Shown one piece after another: positions 3,164 through 64,000 of a DNA stretch of 64,000 nt. The translations under genes were made by a program, and so were the position numbers. The notes under the pieces were generated by a model. The model worked only from the letters and a program-made list of their open reading frames with translations. It had not been told where the DNA came from and ran no database searches. The DNA lies in NCBI GenBank assembly GCA_965214705.1, contig CBDCCI010000002.1, positions 2,016,001 through 2,080,000 of the forward strand, in the 5' to 3' direction. Every line of letters begins with the position of its first letter. Within the stretch, counting starts at the first letter, position 1. The DNA comes from Alphaproteobacteria bacterium (GTDB lineage Bacteria; Pseudomonadota; Alphaproteobacteria; UBA828).

Positions 3164-5187
3164 GTGTGCTGGGCAGCGCCCAGATCAGGTGGGTTCAAGT
3201 CCCACTGGCGCTCGGGTAAGGGGCGCCATATCCAAAAGTGGGGGTAATTCCTCACTGGCCGGAGTGAGCCGATAAGCGAAACTCTAAACGGGCACGAAGC
3301 CGGAAACGGCGGAGACAGCCAAGGGAGGAGCTAAGTTGGTCCACTGTCGAAAGACAACCGGAAGGCAGGGTGTCCACCGCGAGGTGGAATCTGAAGGGCT
3401 TGCGGAGAAGTACCGGGCCGTAATCGAGGGGGCCACCCCATGATGAATCGGTCGGCCAAAGACGGGGCAAGGTCGAGCCGGCACTATGGCGGCGAAGGCG
3501 TTCTTACCCACCCGTCGCACCAAGGTGTTTGCGAGCGGCACGGTACGGAAGATCTGGACGTGACCCCAGGAGGGCTCGCCGCGTTCCCGGGTGGCACCGG
3601 GATAACGGACCCTATAAGCCGAAAGGCGAAATGGGAAAGGATGCGCGGCGAGCAATCGGACAACCGAATAGTACCTGAAGCCCGGCGAAAGCCGGGTGAC
3701 CGCGCGAGCGGCGGCCGTGTGGGCCGGGGAAGTCGGTTGGCAGAGGTGGTCGGCGAGAGACAGCGATGAGTGAGTAAGGACCATGACGCGGACAAGTTCC
3801 TTGAGCGAAAGACCCGGACATCATGGCCCGAGGAGACTCATCGACTGGATCAACCCGGCGGGTGACAGGAAGGTCCACTCACTGGTGGACAAGGTGTACA
3901 AGCGGAAGAACCTTGAGGTGGCCTGGGAAAAGGTGAAGCGCAACCGGGGTGCCGGTGGCGTGGACGGAGAGGATTTAGCGGCGTTCGAGGCATCGCTGGA
4001 TGCAAATCTCGATCGCCTGCACCGGGAGTTGCGGGACGGTGAGTATCACCCGCAGCCGGTTCTCCAATGCCTGATCCCCAAGGCGGGCCAGCCGGGGAAG
4101 TTCCGCCCGCTCGGCATCCCGACAATCTACGACCGGGTGTGCCAGCAGGCGCTGCTGAACCGGCTGGAACCGATCTTCGAGCCGGTGTTCGACGATGCCA
4201 ACTACGGGTACCGGCAAGGAAGGTCTGCCCATGGAGCGTTACGCAAGATATGGAGGGAACTGGACGAGGGCAACGAGTGGGTTCTCGATGCGGATTTGAA
4301 AGACTTTTTCGGGTCCGTGGACCACGAAAAGCTCCTCGAACTCGTCAACCAGCGAGTCTCGGATGGCCGGGTATTAGGTCTGCTCAGGCAGATGCTCACG
4401 GCCGGGGTGGTGGCCGACGGTAAGAGGCTGCCGACCGAACAGGGCACTCCGCAGGGCGGCATCGTTTCACCGCTGCTCAGCAATATCTTGCTGACCCCGT
4501 TCGATTGGGAAATGCGTCGTCGCGGCTATCGACTAACGCGATACGCCGATGATTGGCTGATCACGTGCCGCACACGCGGGGAAGCCCGCGCAGCACTGGA
4601 GACGGCCAGGCGGATTCTGGCAAAGCTGGGTGTGTCCCTCAACGCCGGGAAGACCCGCATTGTCCATGTCAGGCACGGGTTTGAGTTCCTCGGCTACAAG
4701 ATCAAGCAGGGCGAGCGGCCTCTCCGGCTGTCGTCCTCCAAGATCAAGAGCGGGGTTCGCGGGGGAGCGCGCTACGCGGTTCCGCGTGAGAAATCCATCC
4801 GGCACTTCAAGGACCAGATTCGCCAGCGTACCCGGCGCAAGGCTCCTGTCAGCACGCAGGAGCTGATTGACGAGATCAACCCGATCATTCGGGGATGGGG
4901 CCAATACTATTGCAAGGCCCACGTCCGCGGGCTCTTCCACCAGCTTGACGGCTGGATCGTGCGGCGGCTCTGGTCGCATCGTCGCAAGCGCTGGCGCAAC
5001 GCTGGCTGGAAACAGTTGCCGGAGCGCAAGCTGATCGACGAATACGGGCTTGTTCGCCTGATCTCACTGGTTCCGTCCTTGAACCTTCGTTGAGACACCT
5101 TTGTGAAAGCGGCTTACGGGAAAACCGTACGGGCCGTTTGAGCGGCGGACGGAGGCTAGCCTCGCGGGGCGCCTCCTCCGACCCGAC
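3164..5187 (+). mobile_element. Group II intron (2024 nt) with RT/maturase ORF
   Basis: Starts GTGTG and ends ...CCCGAC; domain V near 5105-5140 with AGC triad and GAAA loop; loop ACTATG (3483-3488) pairs with exon end CGTAGT (EBS1/IBS1); exact exon rejoin. Confidence 0.9.
3783..5093 (+). CDS. ltrA: Group II intron reverse transcriptase/maturase, no C-terminal endonuclease
   Basis: GAGGVDG, RPLGIPTIYDR, GTPQGGIVSPLL, RYADD, FEFLGY, thumb domain INPIIRGWGQYY; no HNH. Confidence 0.93.
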   Translation: MTRTSSLSERPGHHGPRRLIDWINPAGDRKVHSLVDKVYKRKNLEVAWEKVKRNRGAGGVDGEDLAAFEASLDANLDRLHRELRDGEYHPQPVLQCLIPKAGQPGKFRPLGIPTIYDRVCQQALLNRLEPIFEPVFDDANYGYRQGRSAHGALRKIWRELDEGNEWVLDADLKDFFGSVDHEKLLELVNQRVSDGRVLGLLRQMLTAGVVADGKRLPTEQGTPQGGIVSPLLSNILLTPFDWEMRRRGYRLTRYADDWLITCRTRGEARAALETARRILAKLGVSLNAGKTRIVHVRHGFEFLGYKIKQGERPLRLSSSKIKSGVRGGARYAVPREKSIRHFKDQIRQRTRRKAPVSTQELIDEINPIIRGWGQYYCKAHVRGLFHQLDGWIVRRLWSHRRKRWRNAGWKQLPERKLIDEYGLVRLISLVPSLNLR

Positions 5188-46870: not shown

Positions 46871-47366
46871 TCTGTTTCACGCAGCGTAGTTAGCCTCGAA
46901 TGCTAATTGATGCTCGGGCCTGTCTCTAGCCCGCATTTCTCACCACGGTCATGGTCTGCGCGGCGCTGTCCGGCCGACAGGGTAGGAACGGCGCGCAGCT
47001 CGATGCGGGGACATCGGGCAAGGGCCGTGACGCACCCTGTCGGCCGGACGGCGCCGCCCTTCGGGTCGTGCCCGGGCGCCCGCCCGCGTCGTCGCGGGCC
47101 TCAACCGTATTCCCTGATACGCTTTTCGGTCCGCTCCTGGCGGATCGAACGCCTGGGCGCGACGCAGGCCGTGACCCTGATGAGAAACAACAGTCAATCG
47201 TGTTCCACCCTATTCCCATGAGATTTCTGGAGTTCCTCGATTCTGTCTAATACAATGACATGGAGGAGATTTTAGCACTCCGTGGACCTGGTGAGCACTC
47301 CTGGAATACACTTCGCGTGTTGTGGAAGGTGTTGATTTTGAGGACAAGCCATGTCATCATGCCTCC

Positions 47367-48638
47367 ATGAGACACTCACCCGGGAAACGCGTCGCACGCG
47401 TCAAGATCACCATCGCAAAGCGCGCCATCGACAGCCTGAAGCCCGACGATAAACCTTGGATCGCATGGGACGACAAGCTGACCGGCTTTGGCGTCCAGGT
47501 CCACCCCTCGGGCATCAAGTCTTACATCGTCAACTACCGCCTCGGTGAAGGAGGCAGGGCGGCGCCCAACAAACGCCTTGTCATCGGACGGTGCGACAGG
47601 ATGGCCCCCGAGCAGGCCCGCCGCGAGGCACACAGGCTGCTCGGCATGGTCGCCGTCGGCGAGGACCCCGCTGCCGAACGCGCCAAGGGCCGCCGCATGC
47701 CGCCGCTCGGGAAGGCCTTCGAGCAGTACATGAAGGCCAACCCCAAGCGCAAGGACAGCACCAACGCGTCCTACCGCGACCGCTTCGAGCGGCCTCTCGG
47801 TGACTGGCTTGGCCGATCGCTGGACACCATCAGCCGCAGCGACGTGGAGGAGCGCTTCAACCGCATCACCGAGCAGCACGGCTGGGCGGTCGCCAACCAG
47901 TGCATGTCTCTGCTGCGCTCGGTCTATCGTCGGCCCTGCGTGGACTTTCGAGGGCTGGATAATCCTGTTGATCTCTGGCTCGCAGGCGGCGGCAAGTTCC
48001 ATCCCAAGCCGCGCCGCAAGATCCCGCCGCCGGCGGAGGTCCTGCCGCGCTGGCGGAAGGGCATCGAGGCGGTGGTGAGCAACCCCGCCCTTCGGGATGT
48101 GTTCTGGTTCGGAATGTACACGGGCATGCGGCTTGGCGAGGTGCTGCCGCTGCGGTGGGAGCGTGTGAACAGGGAGGCAATGGTCTTCCGCGTGGAGGAG
48201 ACAAAGACGGGCGCGCCGCTGGAGTTGCCCATCACGCGGCAGTTGGCGGCCATTCTCGACCGGCGGTGGGCCGAGAGCGGGAGTTTGCCGGACGGCTGGG
48301 TGTTTCCGTCGGCCACCAGCCGCACGGGCTACTTCGTGAAGCTGACCTATTTTCACCGCCGCATCAGCGATGCCGGTGGCGCGAAGTTCTGGTTCCACGG
48401 CTTGCGCAACTGCTTCATCACGGTGGCAGAGCGAGAGTTGATGCTGCCGCACGCGCTGACCAAGCGGCTGGTGAACCACGCGCCGCCCAACGACGTGACC
48501 GAGGGGTATGCCGCCGCCTGGACGATCGGACAGTTGCGCGAGCCGGCTCAACGCATCGCGGATCGCATCGAGGACTTGATGGGAGAAGAACCCGACCACC
48601 TCAGCGGGGGAACAGCGGCGATGGCCGTCACTACCTGA
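47367..48638 (+). CDS. Tyrosine integrase with arm-binding N-terminal domain
   Basis: WDDKLTGFGVQVHPSG; catalytic TGMR, KT, HGLR, NH, GY all present. Confidence 0.9.
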   Translation: MRHSPGKRVARVKITIAKRAIDSLKPDDKPWIAWDDKLTGFGVQVHPSGIKSYIVNYRLGEGGRAAPNKRLVIGRCDRMAPEQARREAHRLLGMVAVGEDPAAERAKGRRMPPLGKAFEQYMKANPKRKDSTNASYRDRFERPLGDWLGRSLDTISRSDVEERFNRITEQHGWAVANQCMSLLRSVYRRPCVDFRGLDNPVDLWLAGGGKFHPKPRRKIPPPAEVLPRWRKGIEAVVSNPALRDVFWFGMYTGMRLGEVLPLRWERVNREAMVFRVEETKTGAPLELPITRQLAAILDRRWAESGSLPDGWVFPSATSRTGYFVKLTYFHRRISDAGGAKFWFHGLRNCFITVAERELMLPHALTKRLVNHAPPNDVTEGYAAAWTIGQLREPAQRIADRIEDLMGEEPDHLSGGTAAMAVTT

Positions 48639-50128: not shown

Positions 50129-50420
50129 CAAGCCGGCCAAGGCATCACCTCGAACGTCCAGTTCGTGCCGACCTCGCAGCTCGCGGTCTACCGGCCGGAG
50201 CACCGGCTGGAGGACACGATCCTGGGCGAATACACCCAGGCGGGCGGCTTCGACGCCGCCGTCGGATAGGGCAGTAGCCCATGGGAACTCTGCGGGACCT
50301 CGCCGACGCGGCGATGGTCGTCGAAAATGCGGTGGAGGGAGTGGGCGATATCTCCCTCCGCTTCCCCACCTCCGTTCAGCGCCGCGATCTGCTGGCCCGC
50401 CTGAAGCGGGTCAAGCTCAA

Positions 50421-51572
50421 CCCAAGTTGGCAGTGCGCCGTGGAAAGGCGCTCTCTTTCAGCGGGTGCGAATCCCGCCCAACAACTGTCGCTCCGGTTGG
50501 TAGCAGCCAGGGCGGTTCATGGAGGTGACGACATGGGCTGAAGCACCTTGGTGGAAAAGGGCCACCGTTGGGTGGCTCAGCGACCGTGCGGGCCGGAACG
50601 TGAGTGAACGCTGAGCAGGCCTCGAAACGGGTAATGCGAGTGTCGACCCTCCTGCCAAAAGGGGAAGACCGTCGCCGATCGGGAAGAGAGCGACATGCGC
50701 ACCGATCGCGGCTCGCCGGGGTAGTGGCGCCGGCACGCACGGAAGAGGAAGAGAGCAGCAACACGGGAAGCCCTGACGGTGGTGCGCGCACATCAACCGG
50801 AAGCCCGCGAGGGACAGGCCGGGCCGTCAGGGTGGCGGAGAGGCCCGTAAGACTGAGGACGCCGGGTAATGCCGGCCGAGGAAAGGGGCCTCAGGTGTGG
50901 AGGGGTGCCTTGAAGGGAGAAGGGCCAGGGAGTGGCTAAGCCTGTAACCCCGAGAATGGCCGGAGATCCCGGCGGCATCACATGCAAATGGAAGCGAAGG
51001 GGCCGCCCGGAGCAAATCTGCGCGGTACCGCCGGGGCATCGACAGGCCCGGCGGTCAAGGCGGACGACGAATGGACCGCGATGGTTGAGGGGATGCGCAC
51101 CCTTGCGACCGGATCGGAGGTTCCGATCACGTGCGCCATCGTCGCGAGCTTTGCCTGTGTGCGAGATGCATGATCCCACTGGAGAGCTCGGTGCTCGAAA
51201 TGGGCACGCCGGGTTCGGAGAGCGGGGACCGGAAACGCGGCCAAGGGAGCCGGATTGAGGCCCGCAGCGAAAGCGGCGGAATTGCCACCGGACCCTACAG
51301 CAGGCGCGCCAGTCCTCGACTCTACCTTTTTCCGACCGGCCGAGCCTGATCGAGCCGGTTTTGCGGCGCTGAATCACTAGATGTTGGGGTTGGAAGACCC
51401 CTGACCCCCACATTTGCGATCTGTGGTCCTGGAGGTCGATTGTGGGGCCAGGACTTTGGGGTTGAGTCGATATCCCTCTTGCCAGACGCCGCGCCCGCCG
51501 TGTATGCGAAACAGGCATCGCAGAAACGGCGCCGCCATGTACATCAAGGCAACCAGGACGCACACCGACAAG
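50421..51572 (+). mobile_element. Truncated left end of an IS1634 (same type as 61489-63648), split by an intron
   Basis: CCCAAGTTGGCA (50421-50432) plus CTTTTTCCGACC...MYIKATRTHTDK (51326-51572) match the reverse complement of the left end at 63648. Confidence 0.88.
50433..51325 (+). mobile_element. ORF-less group II intron (893 nt)
   Basis: Starts GTGCG and ends GACTCTAC; domain V GAGCTCGGTGCTCGAAATGGGCACGCCGGGTTC near 51184; long domain VI; EBS1 TGCCAA (50653-50658) pairs with exon TTGGCA; no RT ORF. Confidence 0.88.
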
Positions 51573-51693: not shown

Positions 51694-52815
51694 ATGGCAA
51701 CGCTTCGTCTCCACCAAGGCCGCGTCGATGCGCTCAAGCCTCGTAAGTCTGCATACGACATCCGAGACCGGGAACTCAAGGGCTTCGGCGTCAGGGTTCT
51801 GCCCTCGGGCGCCAAGCGCTACTTCATCCATAGCCAGCACGATGGCCGGCGGGTCTGGAAGATGCTCGGCAAGGGCGAGGCCATCGGCGTGGACGAGGCC
51901 CGCGAACGGGCCCAGGCCATACTGGCCTCAATACGGGCTGGAAACGACGACGAGACTGCGGCGGTGCCTGACACCCCGTTCGAGACAGTCGCCGACGAAG
52001 TCTTCCGCCGCTACGCCCGGAACTGGAAGCCGTCGACGCTCAAGGTCAACCAGGGCTACTACCGCAAGCAGATACTGCCTTGGTTCGAGGGACGTCCGAT
52101 CACCGGCATCACCGCCCGCGACGTTCAGCAGTGGTTCGCATCTCTCCACGAGACCCCCGTAGCGGCGGACCGCTCGGCCCCCGTCCTGTCCGTCATCATG
52201 CACCAGGCCGAGGTCTACGGCTACCGGCCCGAGGGGACAAACCCTTGCGCCGGCATCAAGCGCTACCGGCGCCAGGGGCGCGAGCGCTTCCTGTCGACGG
52301 CCGAAGTCAGCCGGCTAGGCTCGGTGTTGGCGAGCCATGAGGCGGGCCACCCGCAGGCTGTGGCGATCATTCGGCTGCTGCTGCTCACCGGATGCCGCAA
52401 GGGCGAGATCATATCCTTGAAGTGGCGCTACTACCGCGAGGGCAAGCTCTTCCTCCCCGATAGCAAGGTCGGGCCGCGCACGGTCTGGCTCTCCTCCCCC
52501 GCGCGCGCCATCCTCGACGGCCTGCCTCGCACTGCCGTCTGGGTCTTCCCCTCGCCAAGGAACGGCCTCCTGCATGCAGCGTCGGTTGGCAGCGTCTGGC
52601 ATCGTGTAAGGGAAGAAGCTGACCTGCACGATGTCCGCCTTCACGATCTCCGACATACGCATGCCAGCATGGCCCTGGCGCAGGGCGAGACGGTGCTGAC
52701 CATCGGCCGGCTTCTCGGACACCGCAATCCGGCGACGACGCTGAAGTACATCCACCTGTCCGACGCCATGGTGCGCGAGGCGGTGGACGTTGTCGGCGCA
52801 GCCCTCGAGGGTTGA
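51694..52815 (+). CDS. Tyrosine recombinase/integrase, first of a tandem pair
   Basis: RBS AGGAGG; GFGVRVLPSG arm domain; TGCR, K, HDLRH, LLGH, Y. Confidence 0.9.
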   Translation: MATLRLHQGRVDALKPRKSAYDIRDRELKGFGVRVLPSGAKRYFIHSQHDGRRVWKMLGKGEAIGVDEARERAQAILASIRAGNDDETAAVPDTPFETVADEVFRRYARNWKPSTLKVNQGYYRKQILPWFEGRPITGITARDVQQWFASLHETPVAADRSAPVLSVIMHQAEVYGYRPEGTNPCAGIKRYRRQGRERFLSTAEVSRLGSVLASHEAGHPQAVAIIRLLLLTGCRKGEIISLKWRYYREGKLFLPDSKVGPRTVWLSSPARAILDGLPRTAVWVFPSPRNGLLHAASVGSVWHRVREEADLHDVRLHDLRHTHASMALAQGETVLTIGRLLGHRNPATTLKYIHLSDAMVREAVDVVGAALEG

Positions 52816-53975
52816 TCCGTGGCCGTGAGGAGGAGGCGTCTGACTGACGCAAGTGTCGCGAAGCTGGTACCGGCGGCCCGCGAGTATACCGTTTGGGACA
52901 CGCGCCATGCGGGTCTCGGCATTCGGGTGCGGCCGTCGGGGCACCGGAGCTTCATATACTGGCGGAAGGGCGAGGACAGTGCGCGCAGGATCACGCTCGG
53001 GCCTGCGTCGTTGATGAAGATCGAGGAGGCGCGCAGCCAGTGCGTCTCCATCGAGAGCGGCGCACGATCCGGCCAGGCACGGCGCGACAAGGTGCCCACC
53101 TTCGAGGAATTTGTCGCGGGTCCGGGGCGGACGTGTTTCGAGCGGGGCAAGCCGTCGACGCGGAAAGTCTTTGCCAGGGTCGTCTCCGTGCGACTGCTGC
53201 CCGCCTTCGGCTCGTTGCCGCTGGACCGGATCACCCGCGCCGACGTGACCCGCTGGTTCGACGAATGCAGCCGGACCACGCCGGGCGCGGCCAACAAGGC
53301 GTTGAACCTGCTCAGCCGGGTTCTCAATCATGCGATCGTCTGCGGCCATATCCAGGCGAACCCCGCGCGTGGCATCCAGTGGAACCCCGGTGCCAAGCTC
53401 ACCCGCTTCTTGTCGCGCGAGGAAGTCCGCCGACTTCATCACGCCCTGGATCGCCACAATCACGCGCGACCGTCGCGCGCGCGACAGGCGGACGTCATCC
53501 GTCTTCTCTTGCTCACCGGCTGCCGGAAGAGCGAAATCCTGACTCTGCGCTGGCAGGACGGGGACGGGGACACGCTTAATCTAATCGATGCGAAGACTGG
53601 ACCGAGGCGGGTCTTTCTGAATGCGCCGGCCCGCGCCATCCTTGAGAGGCAGCCGCGCTCGGGGAGCACCTACGTCTTCCCTGCGCCGTCGAATCCCGGT
53701 CGACCGCTTTCGCATCACCTGCCCCTCTGGCGTTCGGTACGCAGGGAAGCCGGGATCGAAGACGTGCGCATCCACGACCTCAGACACACGCACGCCAGCC
53801 ACGCCGTTCTGCAAGGCGTCCCGCTTCCGGTGATCTTTCGTTCATTGTGCCACTCCATTGCAGGTCATTGTAATTGCGAGACTTTTGTGTTCGGACTTGC
53901 CGCGACACGGAGATTTTCCCGTCCGGGGAGCCCGAGAATGCCGATGCTGTGCGTAGCCGCATGATCGGCGTTTCC

Positions 53976-56033
53976 CTAACTCGCTGTAAACATTGAGAGC
54001 TGCCCGTCTTCAGCGGCGCGACACGGACGCCTGCGGCGCTGGCACGCCTCAAGCACCTTCGGGTCTTCGATAGCCGCCGCACGGATCCGCCACGGCGCCT
54101 GTGGCACCGCCTGTTCGGCGGCCAGAACGCCGTCCTTGATCAGGCGGCGGATCACGTGGCTGGTCACGCCGAGCTTCGCGGCGGCCTGTGACATCGTCAG
54201 CCAAGCCTCCTGCATCTTGTCGGAGCGCGCGCCGCGAATGCGGTGATGAATCCGAACATTCTTGACAATGGATCCGGTCCAGGTGTTACCCATGCCGCTC
54301 CGCATCCCCATGCGATTGAGCGTGGCGGCGATCTCGGCGTCCGACCACGGCCCGGCCATGCTGCGGATCACCTTGAGCGCATCTTCGGGCGTGCGACGGA
54401 AAGTTCCGCCGCGTGCCTGTTTGCGAACGCGAAGCTGTGAGTGTCGGCCACCCCGCCAGCGGATCACCAGAACCACCTCGCGTGCGGCTTCATCCACGTC
54501 GGCGACGATGTCCTCGATGACGCCGCGCAGCAGTTGCTGGCGGGCGCGCATCGTGGTCCCCGGCGCCTCCCACGCGGCTTCGAGATCGTCGGCGAGGGAG
54601 GTGAAGTCGGGAACCTCGCCGCAGCCCTCCGGCGGCTCGCTCAGGCGCGCCTCGAACGCCGCCACACGCTGCAGCGCGGCCTCCCAGGTCTTTTCCAACT
54701 GCGCCGCAATCAAGCGATTGTCGGGATCGCAGGCCGCGTAGCGGCGTTCCGCCAGTGACGCATCGTAGCGGGCTTGCTCCAACTCCAATTCCATCAGCCG
54801 CCGGCCTTCGCTGCGCTCCTCCATACGCCTCCTCTCTGCCTCAAGGGCTGCCTCGACCGCGAGCGGCGACACCGCCCGAAGGACCTCGCCGACAACCGCC
54901 TTCTCGACACGGCGCCCGCCGAAGCTCAGACAACGCTTGTGGCCCTCGTTCTGCCGACTGCGGCAGCCATAGTAGGGTGCAGGCGTCCTGCTGCCGTAGG
55001 ACACCACCAAGCGGTTCCCGCAGCGCGCGCAGGTCAGCAGCCCTGCCAGCAAGGCCGACCCACCGCGCCCCGACTTGACGCCGTCACTGCGTGCGTAGTT
55101 GTTGGCCCGAAGCTGCTCGCGGTTTCGCTTGAACTCCTTCCAGTCGATGAAGCTCGGGTGATGATCTTCAATCACGACTTCCCAGTCTTCAAGCGGTTTG
55201 GCGCAGCCATAGATCTTCCGCAGGCGGCCGTCGACCACGGTCGTGCGCGTGCCGCTCTTGCCGTAGACGTAGGTCCCGGCATAGAACGGGTTCGTCAAGG
55301 TCGACAGGACGTTGTAGTAGCGGATCGGGCGCCAGTCGAAGCCCGTCCCGCCACGCTTGTCGGACGGCTTCGGGAAGTGGAACCTGTCTTCCTTCATCGA
55401 GAGCAGCACTTGGCGTGCGCTGCCGAGTCGGCGGAAGCGCTCGAAAATCTCCCGGATCGTCGCCTGAAGCCGCTCGTCCGGATCGAGGGCGAGCCCGGTC
55501 TCGCGGTCCCAGATGTAGCCCGGCGGCACTGGTATGCGCAGCTCGCCGCGCCGCGCCTTGCCGCGCGCCGCCTCGGACATGCGGGCGCGCAGCTGGCTGA
55601 GCTCGAAGGTCGAGATGCTGCCCTTCATCCCCAGCAGAAGCCTGTCATTGGGCAGGTTCGGGTCGTAGACCCCATCGAGATCGATGATCCGTCCGCCGAC
55701 GAAGCCGCAGACCTCGAGGAGATGCTCCCAGTCCCGGCCGTTGCGCGCCAGCCTGGTGGCATCGAGGCAAAGCACGGCACCGACCATGTTCTCGTACATC
55801 AATGCCAGCAGCCGCTCGAAGCCCGGCCGCTCTGCCATGCCGCTGGCCGTGCGGCCGAGGTCGTCGTCGATCGCCTCGACATCGCGGAACCCGTGATGGC
55901 GGGCGGCTTCGACGAGTTCATACTGACGCCGCCGGCTTTCAGGGTTGTTGATTATCTGCCCGGGCTTGGACTGGCGGATGTAAACGACCGCCTTGCGCTT
56001 CAACAGCACGGCCGGGAGATCAGCGCTCCTCAT
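53976..56033 (-). CDS. Large serine recombinase with zinc ribbon and C-terminal HTH
   Basis: YIRQS catalytic Ser, DDLGRTASG..RPGF, RLARN, LLTCARCG, excisionase-like HTH LTMSQAAAKLGVT. Confidence 0.92.
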   Translation of the reverse strand: MRSADLPAVLLKRKAVVYIRQSKPGQIINNPESRRRQYELVEAARHHGFRDVEAIDDDLGRTASGMAERPGFERLLALMYENMVGAVLCLDATRLARNGRDWEHLLEVCGFVGGRIIDLDGVYDPNLPNDRLLLGMKGSISTFELSQLRARMSEAARGKARRGELRIPVPPGYIWDRETGLALDPDERLQATIREIFERFRRLGSARQVLLSMKEDRFHFPKPSDKRGGTGFDWRPIRYYNVLSTLTNPFYAGTYVYGKSGTRTTVVDGRLRKIYGCAKPLEDWEVVIEDHHPSFIDWKEFKRNREQLRANNYARSDGVKSGRGGSALLAGLLTCARCGNRLVVSYGSRTPAPYYGCRSRQNEGHKRCLSFGGRRVEKAVVGEVLRAVSPLAVEAALEAERRRMEERSEGRRLMELELEQARYDASLAERRYAACDPDNRLIAAQLEKTWEAALQRVAAFEARLSEPPEGCGEVPDFTSLADDLEAAWEAPGTTMRARQQLLRGVIEDIVADVDEAAREVVLVIRWRGGRHSQLRVRKQARGGTFRRTPEDALKVIRSMAGPWSDAEIAATLNRMGMRSGMGNTWTGSIVKNVRIHHRIRGARSDKMQEAWLTMSQAAAKLGVTSHVIRRLIKDGVLAAEQAVPQAPWRIRAAAIEDPKVLEACQRRRRPCRAAEDGQLSMFTAS

Positions 56034-59421: not shown

Positions 59422-60923
59422 GAGCCACTTGCAAAACTCCCAGGCGCGGTCTGCTTTTCCCGAGAGCCCGGCGTGAGGACATTGACGGTCGGAACGTAAC
59501 ATGAACTTCGGGACGAGCGGACGTCGCTGGCTGCCGCCGGGGCGCCGATTCGCCGCAAACCGATGCCCATGCGGGCGCATTTTGGACCCGCCGTCGCGAT
59601 GCGGACATGGCTTTTTGCGCCTCCGCGGAGGGAGGCGTGCCGGCGTGACAGCGACGGAGGCGCCGCTCAGGCCAGGAGGCGCATCAGCTGGTCGACCGTC
59701 AGCACCAGGATGCCGAACATCAGGTGGCAATGAACCTTGGCATGGCCGCACACGCGGACATGGCGGCCCCCGCAGTTGTCCTTCAGCCCACCGTTGATGC
59801 GCTCGATGTTCGAGCGCTCGTTGTAGCGCTCGTCCGCCGGGTGGCGGTGACCGACGCCTCTCTGCGCCCTGGCCTCGCGCGCCAGCTCCTCCTTGTACTC
59901 CTTGTCGCGAGGGTTGACGTCGATGATCGGGACGTGGCCCAGCAGGTAGCTGTGCCAGCCGATCTCGGGCGCGTCATAGGCTGAGTCCATGAGGTCGTAC
60001 AGATTGGTGACGCGGTCGGCGGTCATACTCGCCAGCGGGATCGCGGCCTGGCTGTCGTGCAGCGAGGCGGACGTCAGGATGCAACTGATCGGAATGCCGC
60101 CATCGGCGGCGTCGATGTGCAGCTTGTAACCGATCCACGATGTGGTATGGCCCCTGGCGTTGCGCTTGGTGCCGACGTCGCAGGCTTTCGGCAGGTCGTC
60201 GAGCATCTGGGGCAAGCTCATCGTGAGCTGGCGTTTCACGCGGCGCTCCTCCTTGGGCCGCTCCTCGCCCTTGCGCGGGCGGCCGCGCTTGCGCTTCGGC
60301 TTCTCCGCCTTGGGCTTGGGCTGAGGCTTCTCGCGCGCCTCGATCGCCGTCGAGTCGCGCGAGACGTGCCCGACCAGATGGTCTCCGAGGGTCTGCTTGA
60401 TCAGCGCCTCATGCACGCGAGCGGGCAACGCACTCTCGGAGAACTCCGCAAACGCCCGCGAAAACGTCGCCTCGCTCGGGATCTCTGCGGCATAGGTCCA
60501 GCCGCAGAGACGGCGTAGCGTCTTGTCGTTCTCAAGGCGCTCGATCAGGGCGCGCGTCGTGGGTACGTCGAACACCGCCTTGGCGATGAAGGCGCGGGCC
60601 AAGGCCGCCCGATCCTCGACCGGCCGACCGGGCAGGCCATGGAAATGGGGAAGGAAGCTCTCGACCCGCGCAAGCTCAAGCACGGTGACGAAGCGCCGGT
60701 ACCTCTCGCCGAGCGGCCCGAGCTCCTCCTCAAGCCACGGGAAAAGATCCGCTTGAATGTGATGCCAGAATCCGGATAGTGTCTGTCCCAGCGACATGGG
60801 GCCGCCCTCTCCGTCGACGTTGTCCGAAACCCGACAGGAACAGAGAGCGGTCCCGATTTCCAGGACAATCTGACCGCCACGGCGGCAAAATCCCGCTCAA
60901 ATGCGGAATTTTGCAAGTGGCTC
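59422..60923 (-). mobile_element. IS1182/IS5-like element
   Basis: Perfect IR GAGCCACTTGCAAAA; TSD ATGG (59418-59421, 60924-60927). Confidence 0.85.
59667..60797 (-). CDS. DDE transposase (IS1182/IS5-like)
   Basis: PSEATFSR, SRDSTAI, GYKLH, ASLHDS, MDSAYD, YNERSNIER.N..LK. Confidence 0.85.
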   Translation of the reverse strand: MSLGQTLSGFWHHIQADLFPWLEEELGPLGERYRRFVTVLELARVESFLPHFHGLPGRPVEDRAALARAFIAKAVFDVPTTRALIERLENDKTLRRLCGWTYAAEIPSEATFSRAFAEFSESALPARVHEALIKQTLGDHLVGHVSRDSTAIEAREKPQPKPKAEKPKRKRGRPRKGEERPKEERRVKRQLTMSLPQMLDDLPKACDVGTKRNARGHTTSWIGYKLHIDAADGGIPISCILTSASLHDSQAAIPLASMTADRVTNLYDLMDSAYDAPEIGWHSYLLGHVPIIDVNPRDKEYKEELAREARAQRGVGHRHPADERYNERSNIERINGGLKDNCGGRHVRVCGHAKVHCHLMFGILVLTVDQLMRLLA

Positions 60924-60948
60924 ATGGGTCAAGCGCCAGGAGGTCGTC

Positions 60949-61488
60949 ATGCCGCGCGGACGCCCACTCCCCCCACTGGTTCTCACTGACGATCAACGCG
61001 ATCAGTTGGTGGCCGTTTCCCGATCGACCTCGATGCCGCACGGCCTGGTCCAGCGGGCCCGCATGATCCTGGCCTGTGCGGAGGGCTTGACCAACACCGC
61101 GGTGGCCGAACGACTGGACGTCTCGCTGTCGGCGGTCGGCAAATGGCGCCGCCGGTTCCTGGATCGGGGGGTTCAGGGGTTGCATGACGAACTTCGCCCG
61201 GGACGCCCCCGCAGCTATGGCGACGAGAAGGTGGCCGGACTGATCACCCGCGCCCTGCACAACAAGCCCGACAACGCCGACGCCTGGAGCGTCCGCTTGA
61301 TGGCGGAAGCAGAGGGTGTGTCAAAGAGCACCGTGCAACGCTGGTTCTCGCTGTTCGGGGTCAAGCCGCACCGGAGCGACACCTTCAAGCTGTCCAGCGA
61401 TCCGTTCTTTGTCGAGAAGGTTCGGGACCTGACCGGTCTGTACCTGAACCCGCCGGATCACGCGATGGGTGCTGTGCGTCGATGAAAA
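60949..61488 (+). pseudogene. IS630 transposase N-terminal part (frameshift near 61468, then IS1634 insertion)
   Basis: RARMIL..A.G, KWRRRF, RPGRP, WS.RLMA, FKLSSDPFFVEKV, LYLNPP; rejoins as VLCVDEKSQIQALNRTQP at 63653. Confidence 0.85.
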
Positions 61489-63648
61489 CCCAAGTTGGCA
61501 CTTTTCCGCTGCCTGTGTTCCCTATTGGTTTGATTCAACGCGATATTTTTCTCGGTCGATTCCAACATGGCCCCACATTTTGTGAGATTCTGTCAGCTCA
61601 TCAGACGGGTCCTCGTGCGGTGGATGGCGGGGTCCACGCCCGCCGCCGAGGAGATTGCGGCAACCTCGGCGGCCGGGCGCGTGTCCTGGCGGTTGACGAT
61701 CAAGGTGCCGTCGGTCTGGCGCAGGCGCGTGGTGATCCGCACCCAGGTCCGCATGCTCTCGCGGATCGACGCCCAGCACTTGTGGATGCCGCGCGCGGCC
61801 AGCCGGGTACGGATCAGATGCACGGCGTGGTAGGCCAGCACGGCGATCAGCAGGTGGGCCGCGATGCGCCGGTCGAGCTGGTGCCAGATCGGGCGAAGGC
61901 CGAGCTCGGATTTCAGGCTCCGGAATGTCGCCTCGATATCCGTGATCCGCCAGTACGTCCGCAGGACCGTCTCGATGTCCCAGTCGACGTGGCTGGTGCG
62001 CAGCACATAGGCACCGGCGCCCTCATCGGCCTCGTCGTATCGCGGCCTGCGCTTGAAGCGCACGGCGGTGGCATTGGGGCCGGTTTTCGCCCTCTCGACC
62101 GTGATCTCGTAGTGCCTGGCGACGGCGGAGAAGCGCTGCTTGAGGCGGCCTATGCTCTCCAGCACCTTGTCGTAGCGCTTGAGGCGGCCCTTGACCGGGA
62201 GGCCGCCGTGGAGCCTTTCCAGCGCCGCCTCGAAGCGGTTCCGCCTCAGGCCGATGATCGCGTTCTCGGCCTTCTTCTTGCCCTCGCTGACGACGTAGAG
62301 CCGCGCCTCGCCGTCCTCGCTGGCAAGCCGCCAGGCCCGCACCTCGTGGCGCGCGCTGGTGATCAGCAGGGCCTCGGGTCCGCCCTCGGGCGGCGCAGGC
62401 CTGGCACCGCGGCTGACCGCGATCCAGTCGTAGCCCTGCTCGCCCAGCCACGCGATGTTTTTCTCGGTGGCGATGCCCGCGTCCATGACCACCGTGGGCT
62501 TCGCCGCCGTGCCGCCGCACACCGCCTCGAGCCGCGCCAGCGCCTCGTGCAGCGTGCCCGGCTCGCTCACGTTGCCCGGCAGGATCTCGCAACTGCGCGG
62601 GAAGCCCGCGCCGTCGAGCGCCAGCGCCAGCGTGATGAGGGGACAGTCGTCGCGCTTCTGCTTGGAGCGCCCGAACCTGGGAAGCTCGCCGCCCGTGTGG
62701 CCGTGGTAGTGGACGTTGGTGAGATCGTAGAAGGCGATCGTCTCGGGCAGGTCGAGCAGTGCGCGCTCACGGTTGAACAGCTCCCGCTGGATGGCGGCGC
62801 GGTGGCGCCAGAGCAGGTCGCCGATGCGGTAGAGCGTCTTGCGCCGCAGCGCCTTGCGGTCGCCCTCCAGGCCCAGGAGCTCGGCGGCCGCGCTGTCGTG
62901 GCGGAGCCAGCGGCTGGTATCACGCTCGCTGGCGGGATGGACCATCCTGGCGACGATCAGCGCGCTGGCGATGCGCCCGTCGCGGCCCTTGATGTCGAGG
63001 CCGTGGAGGATTTCGGCGAAGCCGAGGGCGTCGAGGGCCTTGAGGCACAGGCGCTCGCAGCCGACCGTGCGCGGGTTCTCGTGCTCCAGGGTATCGAGGT
63101 CGACGGTGGCGATGTCGGGCTTGCGCGCCTCTTCCTGCATCGCCTCGACGCGGAACCCCCTGGCCCTGAGCTTGGCGACGATGTCCTCGGCTGCGGCCCG
63201 CACATCCGCCTCGCCCTCGAACAGCGGCGGCTTGCCGTGAAGCAGCGCCTCGGCGAGTTCGGTGACGGCCTTCCACTTCTCGCGCGGCACCGGATAGTCG
63301 GTGCCGAGATTGAGCAGCGTCCTGTGGCGCACCTTGTCGCCGACGCGCTGGGCGAGCACGAGGCGATGGCTTCGGACCGGCTGGCCGGCCTTGTCGGTGT
63401 GTGTCCTGGTTGCCTTGATGTACATGGCGGCGCCGTTTCTGCGATGCCTGTTTCGCATACACGGCGTTCGCGGCATCTGGCAAGAGGGATATCGACTCAA
63501 CTCCAAAGTCCTGGCCCCACAATTGGCTTCCAGGACCACGAATGGCAAATGTGGGTCTCAGGTGTCCTCCAACCCCAACATCTAGTGGTTCAGCGCCGCA
63601 AAACTGGCTCGAACAGGCTCGGCTGGTCGGAAAAAGTGCCAACTTGGG
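61489..63648 (-). mobile_element. IS1634-like element (second type)
   Basis: IR CCCAAGTTGGCACTTTT; TSD AAAA (61485-61488, 63649-63652). Confidence 0.9.
61593..63425 (-). CDS. IS1634-family transposase
   Basis: FYDLTN, FGRSKQKRDDCP, MDAGI, EATFRSLKSELGLRPIWH; ATG at 63425. Confidence 0.9.
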   Translation of the reverse strand: MYIKATRTHTDKAGQPVRSHRLVLAQRVGDKVRHRTLLNLGTDYPVPREKWKAVTELAEALLHGKPPLFEGEADVRAAAEDIVAKLRARGFRVEAMQEEARKPDIATVDLDTLEHENPRTVGCERLCLKALDALGFAEILHGLDIKGRDGRIASALIVARMVHPASERDTSRWLRHDSAAAELLGLEGDRKALRRKTLYRIGDLLWRHRAAIQRELFNRERALLDLPETIAFYDLTNVHYHGHTGGELPRFGRSKQKRDDCPLITLALALDGAGFPRSCEILPGNVSEPGTLHEALARLEAVCGGTAAKPTVVMDAGIATEKNIAWLGEQGYDWIAVSRGARPAPPEGGPEALLITSARHEVRAWRLASEDGEARLYVVSEGKKKAENAIIGLRRNRFEAALERLHGGLPVKGRLKRYDKVLESIGRLKQRFSAVARHYEITVERAKTGPNATAVRFKRRPRYDEADEGAGAYVLRTSHVDWDIETVLRTYWRITDIEATFRSLKSELGLRPIWHQLDRRIAAHLLIAVLAYHAVHLIRTRLAARGIHKCWASIRESMRTWVRITTRLRQTDGTLIVNRQDTRPAAEVAAISSAAGVDPAIHRTRTRLMS

Positions 63649-63725
63649 AAAAGAGCCAGATCCAGGCCCTCAACCGTACCCAGCCCACGCTGCCCATGGG
63701 GCTGGGCTACGTCGAGGGCTACACC

Positions 63726-64000
63726 GTAAGCGTTACGCAGACCCCATGCCGGAATCTGGGTTGACTACGAGGGGGACTTGTTGAGGAGCGCCGTGAGCGC
63801 GCGAGTCAATTTGTCTCGGGCTCGAAGTTCCACGGCAGCAGTTCCTGGATTTTGGACTGCGGGTGACCCTTGGCGATCTTCTCGAGCGTGCTCCGCATCC
63901 AGGCGTAAGGCTCGACGCCGTTCATCTTGCAGGTCTCGATCAGCGATGCGATGCGGGCCCAGGCTTGCGCACCCTCGTCGTTGCCGGCGAAGAGCGCATT
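63726..64000 (-). mobile_element. Right end of an IS66 element with tnpC C-terminus (63806 to window edge)
   Basis: Terminal GTAAGCG; ...ASLIETCKMNGVEPYAW...GHPQSKIQELLPWNF. Confidence 0.88.

Follow-up and report, generated by a model that had tools for sequence, protein, structure and literature searches.

A group II intron lacking an open reading frame and its probable retrohoming into the inverted-repeat tip of an IS1634-family element in an alphaproteobacterial genome

A group II intron of 893 nt that carries no reverse transcriptase (RT) gene was found at positions 50433-51325 (+) of the window analysed here, a 64-kb stretch (C3:2016001-2080000) of an alphaproteobacterial genome of 7.9 Mb assembled in three contigs (C1, C2 and C3; the genome is referred to as G000). 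Positions given without a contig name are those of the window. The intron is very likely a non-autonomous element that has multiplied by retrohoming into the inverted-repeat tip of an insertion sequence (IS) of the IS1634 family. Its copies are near-identical and stand in differing flanks, which indicates separate insertions.

Both termini of the element fit the group II consensus GUGYG / AY, with GUGCG at 50433 and CUAC ending at 51325. In the Rfam search of the 64-kb window, the domain I segment at 50459-50603 (+) matched RF02003 (group-II-D1D4-4) with 80.2 bits (E 6.1e-16, model positions 1-138 of 138), and this match was the sole RNA family above its gathering score, which is 49 for RF02003 and 40 for RF00029. 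The latter family, covering domains V and VI, was detected under relaxed thresholds at 51182-51325 with 36.9 bits (E 2.8e-5), a score that stays under the gathering score because domain VI carries an insertion of about 100 nt. A local fold revealed a canonical domain V at 51184-51216 (+), composed of 9 bp, a 2-nt AC bulge, 4 bp and a GAAAU loop and containing the AGC triad, while the extended domain VI was placed at 51219-51323 (+) by the local fold together with the Rfam alignment. A single bulged A at 51319 in the local fold, 7 nt from the 3′ splice site, is presumed to be the branch point. In the consensus fold of 11 relatives, compensatory changes were seen at 61 of the 94 pairs. The longest frames within the intron encode 111, 108 and 63 aa, none being an RT gene, and a Pfam search of the 108-aa and 63-aa frames detected no family. 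The 893-nt element is a real group II intron without an RT gene; the original prediction, which had proposed an intron of this kind from the letters of the window, was borne out by the RF02003 score, the canonical domain V and the lack of any RT match.

The 5′ exon, at 50421-50432 (+), consists of the outermost 12 nt of an IS1634-type terminal inverted repeat, CCCAAGTTGGCA, and the intron divides this repeat exactly as CCCAAGTTGGCA|CTTTTTCCGACC, in agreement with the split that had been proposed. Within the window, and with up to three mismatches allowed, the joined 24-mer has a single occurrence, at 63625-63648 (-), with 0 expected by chance. The 3′ exon, at 51326-51572 (+), is a relic of an IS left end (IS positions 13-259), whose 247 bp are 92.3% identical to an intact copy and keep the first transposase codons (ATG at 51537), after which the relic ends abruptly. 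An intact and unoccupied element of 2160 bp, with both target sites empty and a 4-bp target duplication (AAAA) around it, was located at 61489-63648 (-). It encodes a transposase of 610 aa (61596-63425, -) that matched NF033559 (NCBIfam IS1634) with 258 bits vs a cut-off of 100 and also matched DDE_Tnp_1. The target element belongs to the IS1634 family, and the placement of the intron inside a terminal inverted repeat of that family is upheld by the transposase match. Two unoccupied copies of the target had been reported at 61489 and 63648; both are indeed empty, but they are the two ends of one IS and not separate copies, and the end at 61489 has in common with the opposite end only the first 17 nt, CCCAAGTTGGCACTTTT. 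In the genome as a whole, the IS1634-type element was observed in about 60 copies, which fall into two subfamilies (A and B) that are 94% alike.

BLAST with the intron alone as the query revealed three full copies in G000, namely the window copy, one at C3:1417944 with 100% identity and one at C1:1330418 with 99.55% identity. Three further copies have an intact 5′ end and have lost the 3′ part, retaining nt 1-524, 1-179 and 1-106, respectively, and more distant intron fragments were found at 82-85% identity. CCCAAGTTGGCA stands directly before all six copies that retain the 5′ junction, and beyond this 12-mer each copy has a different flank. Insertion of other copies at unrelated sites had been named in the original prediction as the observation that would speak against it; with 6/6 of the 5′ junctions in G000 at the same site, the prediction was not refuted on this point. 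The intron was always oriented into the IS, and both IS ends and the two IS subfamilies were found occupied. The full copies adjoin three different IS interiors, a diverged left end of subfamily A in the window, a right end of subfamily A and a right end of subfamily B; one ancestral insertion therefore cannot explain them, and at least three separate insertions are needed. The number of empty sites in G000, counted as the exact 12-mer followed by CTTTT, was 117, so that six of 123 sites are occupied. In addition, the introns are identical while the IS relic in the window is only 92.3% like the consensus, so that the insertion is much younger than the relic.

The same copies bear on an alternative in which the intron spread at the DNA level, through the IS itself, segmental duplication or recombination, the match to IS ends going back to one ancestral insertion. 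The genome would offer room for such a course, being extremely repeat-rich and rearranged, with many IS families and with replicons that share identical flanks (C1:23950 and C2:24900). However, the outer flanks of 6/6 copies differ, three types of IS interior, opposite ends included, lie beside the full copies, and an IS in which 893 nt separate the tip from the remainder of the repeat would probably not move as a single unit. The covariation between the intron loop and the exon in relatives, described below, is moreover a signature of RNA-guided targeting. We regard spread at the DNA level as highly improbable, and retrohoming into the IS tip is the reading followed here.

The exon-binding sites (EBS) were read from an alignment of the window intron with one further intron of G000 (C3:604468), with introns of two genomes of the same genus (G005 and G004) and of one genome of the same class (G047), and with the distant RF02003 matches L046-L049 and L053; the EBS1 pairings were taken by eye from the alignments. 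EBS1 (UGCCAA) is found at 50653-50658 (+), within the loop of 9 nt that caps a hairpin of domain I, and is the perfect complement of TTGGCA, the intron-binding site 1 (IBS1) at 50427-50432. The EBS1 loop region is the most variable part of domain I, and the stem that closes the loop is predicted with compensatory changes. Pairing between loop and exon amounted to six pairs in the window intron (TGCCAA / TTGGCA), in C3:604468 (GCGGAA / TTCCGC) and in G047 (TTAAAC / GTTTAA), to five pairs plus one G-U in G005 (TGGTGT / GCACCA), to seven pairs, one being G-U, in L047 (TGAGTAA / TTATTCA), to five pairs in L046 (AACGG / CCGTT) and to four pairs each in G004, L049 and L053, while in L048 no EBS1-exon pairing was found at the same alignment columns. 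The EBS1/IBS1 pairing is well supported because the loop covaries with its own exon end in the relatives and the stem carries compensatory changes. The loop and its position had been given correctly in the original prediction, and all six pairs of the proposed interaction are Watson-Crick pairs.

The second proposed exon-binding site, EBS2 (UUGGGU), lies at 50568-50573 (+), as had been predicted, at the tip of a hairpin with a covarying stem. TTGGGT is a perfect 6-nt Watson-Crick complement of ACCCAA, the proposed IBS2 at 50420-50425, which occupies exon positions -13 to -8 at the usual spacing and falls mostly inside the 12-nt tip. The target variant CCCGAG in G012, a sister species, still pairs with EBS2 via a G-U wobble, and 5-bp matches between loop and exon (exon -15 to -10) were seen in the same hairpin in L049 and L053. 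Three observations count against this assignment: nearly the same loop (CUUGGG) is carried in unrelated exons by G005, G004 and L047; in more distant relatives the EBS2 hairpin is closed by a UUCG or UUUG tetraloop; and the local minimum-free-energy fold buries GGU in the stem and leaves only UUG, about half of TTGGGT, unpaired in the loop. In a complementarity scan over exon -18 to -6 of 10 introns, the hairpin column scored in 4/10 introns, no better than two other bins. No EBS3 was identified. The EBS2-IBS2 pairing is plausible; of what had been proposed for it, the complementarity stands, while the shared loop in three relatives with unrelated exons and the half-buried fold take away from its role in recognition. 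The G047 exon, AACCCAAGTTTAA, resembles the IS tip, and it was not used, as the copy is a 5′ fragment with a different hairpin loop.

Taken as a mechanism, the excised lariat would reverse-splice into the DNA site at the IS end, where EBS1 (UGCCAA) pairs with the final six nucleotides of the IS tip of 12 nt and the pairing of EBS2 (UUGGGU) with ACCCAA probably adds specificity. The inserted RNA would then be copied by the reverse transcriptase of a related intron, acting in trans. Supply of the enzyme in trans is required because the intron encodes none, and in this the original prediction was right. Priming would come from the replication fork, because the protein of this lineage has no endonuclease domain. 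With regard to strand bias relative to replication, the cumulative GC skew was weak and irregular on all three contigs, and local skews stayed within ±0.011, too little to assign replichores. An IS end that has been interrupted 12 bp from its tip should no longer support transposition. The loss of the transposase-binding end had also been predicted for the window copy, where the point is moot, the IS being already a 247-bp relic. Immediately outside the IS tip, CTCAA was observed at 3/6 occupied vs 8/117 empty ends (Fisher p 0.009, a post hoc comparison on six sites), and it may reflect a distal 5′-exon preference of the helper protein.

The domain IV remnant, at 50891-51181 (+; intron nt 459-749), contains no ORF with a family match. 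The original prediction had recognised in it a decayed RT start, and this likeness proved indistinguishable from chance. Searching the intron by tblastn with 20 RT frames of G000 produced no match (best E 0.056). As a test for an RT remnant, nt 459-640 were aligned locally with the 5′ RT region of the full-length G005 relative; the score was 19, a value equalled by 111/500 shuffles, and a local alignment of the 3′ part, also scoring 19, was matched by 103/300 shuffles. An nhmmer profile built from five relatives left the real domain IV sequence, placed among 300 shuffles, unmatched. A likeness to RT seen by eye in a MAFFT alignment was discounted after the shuffle and profile tests. The full-length relative in G005, 1983 nt in length, aligns to intron nt 1-458 and about 734-893, and neither protein nor nucleotide comparison detected homology to RT genes in the 275-290 nt between the aligned parts. 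A 3′ intron fragment at C1:287705 is similar to intron nt 633-749.

The intron-encoded protein (IEP) of the G005 relative has RVT_1 and GIIM domains with an intact YADD and no HNH domain. A regular-expression search with the class D motif LX3AX3PXLF[V/A]HW, as given in a part of the published account of RmInt2 (PMC4615759), found the motif absent from the G005-type IEPs and from the related IEP on contig C2. G000 contains 57 RVT_1 matches. The RT-bearing lineage closest to the window intron is distributed there over three loci: C3:604468-601879 holds domains I-III, with a nested intron of an 18-copy family inside, and then the first RT codons, while C2:25571-26993 and C1:24607-28191 hold the remainder, both beginning at one common break point (G005 nt 562-565); the RT half on C1 is additionally split by an IS1634 element. 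The RT frame on C2 (C2:25403-26836) stays open over 478 codons, shares 80% identity with the G005 IEP and retains YADD and the maturase domain; translation might start at GTG/TTG within codons 47-52 or at codon 78, the sole ATG upstream of the RT domain. Other IEPs of G000 are ≤37% identical. Candidates for the helper are the C2 frame, a heterologous IEP and a parent since lost, with either the C2 frame or a lost full-length relative being the most likely. Selection on the C2 RT after truncation was considered on account of a ratio of nonsynonymous to synonymous substitution rates (dN/dS) of 0.10 between C2 and C1, and was rejected: a dS of 0.42 in the RT part, next to a 57-codon leader without differences, places the divergence before the break and leaves the ratio uninformative on present function.

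A stronger claim would be that of a split retroelement, in which the ribozyme-only intron and the RT-only remnant on C2 form a working pair that is still homing and acts as a brake on the IS of about 60 copies. We hold this to be rather improbable. If it were true, the brake would lie in the separation of the 12-nt tip and the remaining repeat.

Two further observations concern the RT-bearing loci. The members of the cognate lineage (C3:601879, C2:25571 and C1:24607) are all broken at G005 nt 562-565, and the two right halves are identical in the upstream sequence and the 57-codon leader; the common break point suggests that another mobile element may have been aiming at this site of the intron. 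The 18-copy group II intron, which starts with GTGTG and has a 439-aa RT frame, is found at about 3786-5066 (+) of the window, at C3:604053-602021 and at 17 other places. It lies repeatedly just upstream of the RT genes of other introns, and once inside domains II/III of the closest relative of the window intron, as intron-in-intron homing.

The search for relatives of the intron covered 61 genomes, comprising G000, 20 congeneric genomes and further ones from its family, order and class; 11 of the 61 gave some match. Only G012 has a full ORF-less copy, with 95.5% identity, at CCCGAGTTGGCA, and directly behind this copy, in head-to-tail arrangement, stand the initial 37 nt of a second one (L044, G012:C8, ~236041-236077). 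Empty IS ends numbered 14 in G012 and 15 in G005, with none in G004, G013 and G009. The copies of G000 and G012 have 40 differences in all, with 13 in the 458 nt of domains I-III (2.8%), 21 in the 291 nt of the domain IV filler (7.2%) and 6 in the 144 nt of domains V-VI (4.2%). Domain IV diverges 2.5 times faster than domains I-III (Fisher p 0.0065). As domains I-III vary less than domain IV between the two genomes, the comparison suggests that constraint has acted on the RNA rather than on a protein.

An exact scan for the 24-nt junction recovered G012 only among species-representative genomes and, in metagenomes, five contigs that represent two further loci, both truncated at the 3′ end; one of these loci passes directly into the IS interior after a deletion. 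The search pattern itself contained AGTTGGCA, and only the preceding CCCA counts as independent evidence of the site. In the plasmid collection, 76 records matched, none covering ≥80% of the intron, and no ORF-less homologue was found there; among the plasmid matches listed, domains I-III showed 67-73% identity. Four public runs, consisting of contigs of DNA or of unrecorded kind, were also compared with the window. Contigs of run X1 confirm the occupied junction, and no contig of the four runs bridges the empty form of the window locus.

Several observations weigh against retrohoming into the IS tip as the origin of these copies. The search for a cognate RT-encoding parent, which the original prediction had proposed, turned up no intact RT-bearing intron of the cognate lineage in G000, and in G012 the only RT match is broken and 34% identical. 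The C2 frame has neither domains I-III nor domain IVa nor its native start, and its first 57 codons are unrelated sequence. Occupancy of the available sites is low. All three IS copies hosting full-length introns are truncated at the far end, those beside the other two full introns being cut off at positions 248 and 734, and none of the occupied IS copies is complete; intron insertion may be either the cause or a consequence of IS death. Truncation at the 3′ end, present in 5/9 junction loci, is unlike the products of reverse transcription and needs later deletions, of which one was shown. In runs X5 and X7, which come from other strains, the 3′ end of the intron is joined to non-IS sequence absent from G000; in X5 this 3′ end is near-identical to the window over 50927-51326 (2 differences and 1 gap), and the junction would represent either an ectopic insertion or a rearrangement. 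Finally, neither splicing nor mobility was observed; the four public RNA runs contained ≤0.05 of the sampled words.

Some of this evidence would also fit a dead relic family, which was mobile only alongside a former full-length parent and whose fossils, with an inactive ribozyme, are kept alike by gene conversion. The lack of an intact cognate RT intron in G000 and G012 points in that direction, as do the truncation of half of the G000 copies and of all IS hosts of full-length introns, the RF00029 score of 36.9 against a gathering score of 40 and the occupancy of 6/123. Set against it are two copies that are 100% identical and a third at 99.55%, beside an IS relic only 92.3% like the consensus, as well as the presence of the three full copies in three different end types. 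Between species, the filler has changed 2.5 times as much as the ribozyme parts, and domain V, the branch A and EBS1 are intact, as are the consensus sequences at the 5′ and 3′ ends. A dead relic family is thus considered unlikely, and multiplication by retrohoming into the IS tip remains the preferred explanation.

Homing into the inverted repeats of an IS and ORF-less bacterial introns served in trans are both already known, and the picture of how such elements work is unchanged by the window intron. ORF-less bacterial group II introns were reportedly catalogued by Simon et al. in 2008. A literature search at abstract level found no published ORF-less intron in an IS1634 end. The intron RmInt2 of Sinorhizobium meliloti GR4, of class D and type IIB, is described in part of its published account as having all its copies in the inverted repeats of ISRm17, and its authors point out there that homing into inverted repeats doubles the sites and guarantees one on the lagging-strand template (PMC4615759). 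The same part of that account reports that RmInt2 tolerates four EBS2 pairs and that head-to-tail copies were seen (PMC4615759). As far as these sections go, the window intron is like RmInt2 in having its copies within IS terminal inverted repeats, with two opposite-facing sites per IS, in an IEP lineage without an endonuclease domain, in a proposed EBS2 pairing that would be relaxed or short, and in the head-to-tail arrangement of the G012 copy with the 37-nt start of a second copy, which resembles the tandem products of RmInt2 (PMC4615759). It differs in that RmInt2 has its own IEP of 419 aa whereas the window intron has none, in the IS and the host, in the absence of the class D C-terminal motif from the IEP lineage found here, and in that the mobility of RmInt2 is experimental while that of the window intron is inferred (PMC4615759).

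Provision of the protein in trans has a counterpart in the TeI3-type ORF-less introns of Thermosynechococcus elongatus, which, according to the portion of the report consulted, are spliced and mobilised in trans by the IEPs of related introns (PMC2882425). Similarities, within that portion, are the multiple near-identical ORF-less copies, a genome rich in RT-encoding and nested introns and the dependence on a protein in trans; in contrast, the TeI3-type introns occupy diverse sites and have intact helpers, while here a single IS-end site is used and no intact cognate helper intron was found (PMC2882425). Zimmerly and Semper (2015), who also summarise the catalogue of Simon et al., state in the section consulted that genomes in which ORF-less bacterial introns are found also have related IEPs and that trans splicing was shown in a cyanobacterium (PMC4424553). 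The window intron provides a natural test case, with an 893-nt ribozyme, a target of about 25 nt and 117 empty and 6 filled sites in one genome, and it bears on how far a non-cognate or fragmentary RT can serve an intron RNA.

In the surroundings of the intron, three genes for tyrosine recombinases (phage integrases) were detected at 47322-48638, 51694-52815 and 52819-53964 (+), together with a large serine recombinase at 53976-56033 (-). The sequence right after the IS relic is part of a repeat with 42 BLAST matches in the genome. The intact IS1634 element splits an IS630-type transposase gene (60901-61485 and 63649-63764, +), whose frame runs on through the 4-bp duplication. A target preference of C-T-N-N-A was observed for the IS, with C at -17 in 105/117 ends and T at -16 in 74/117.

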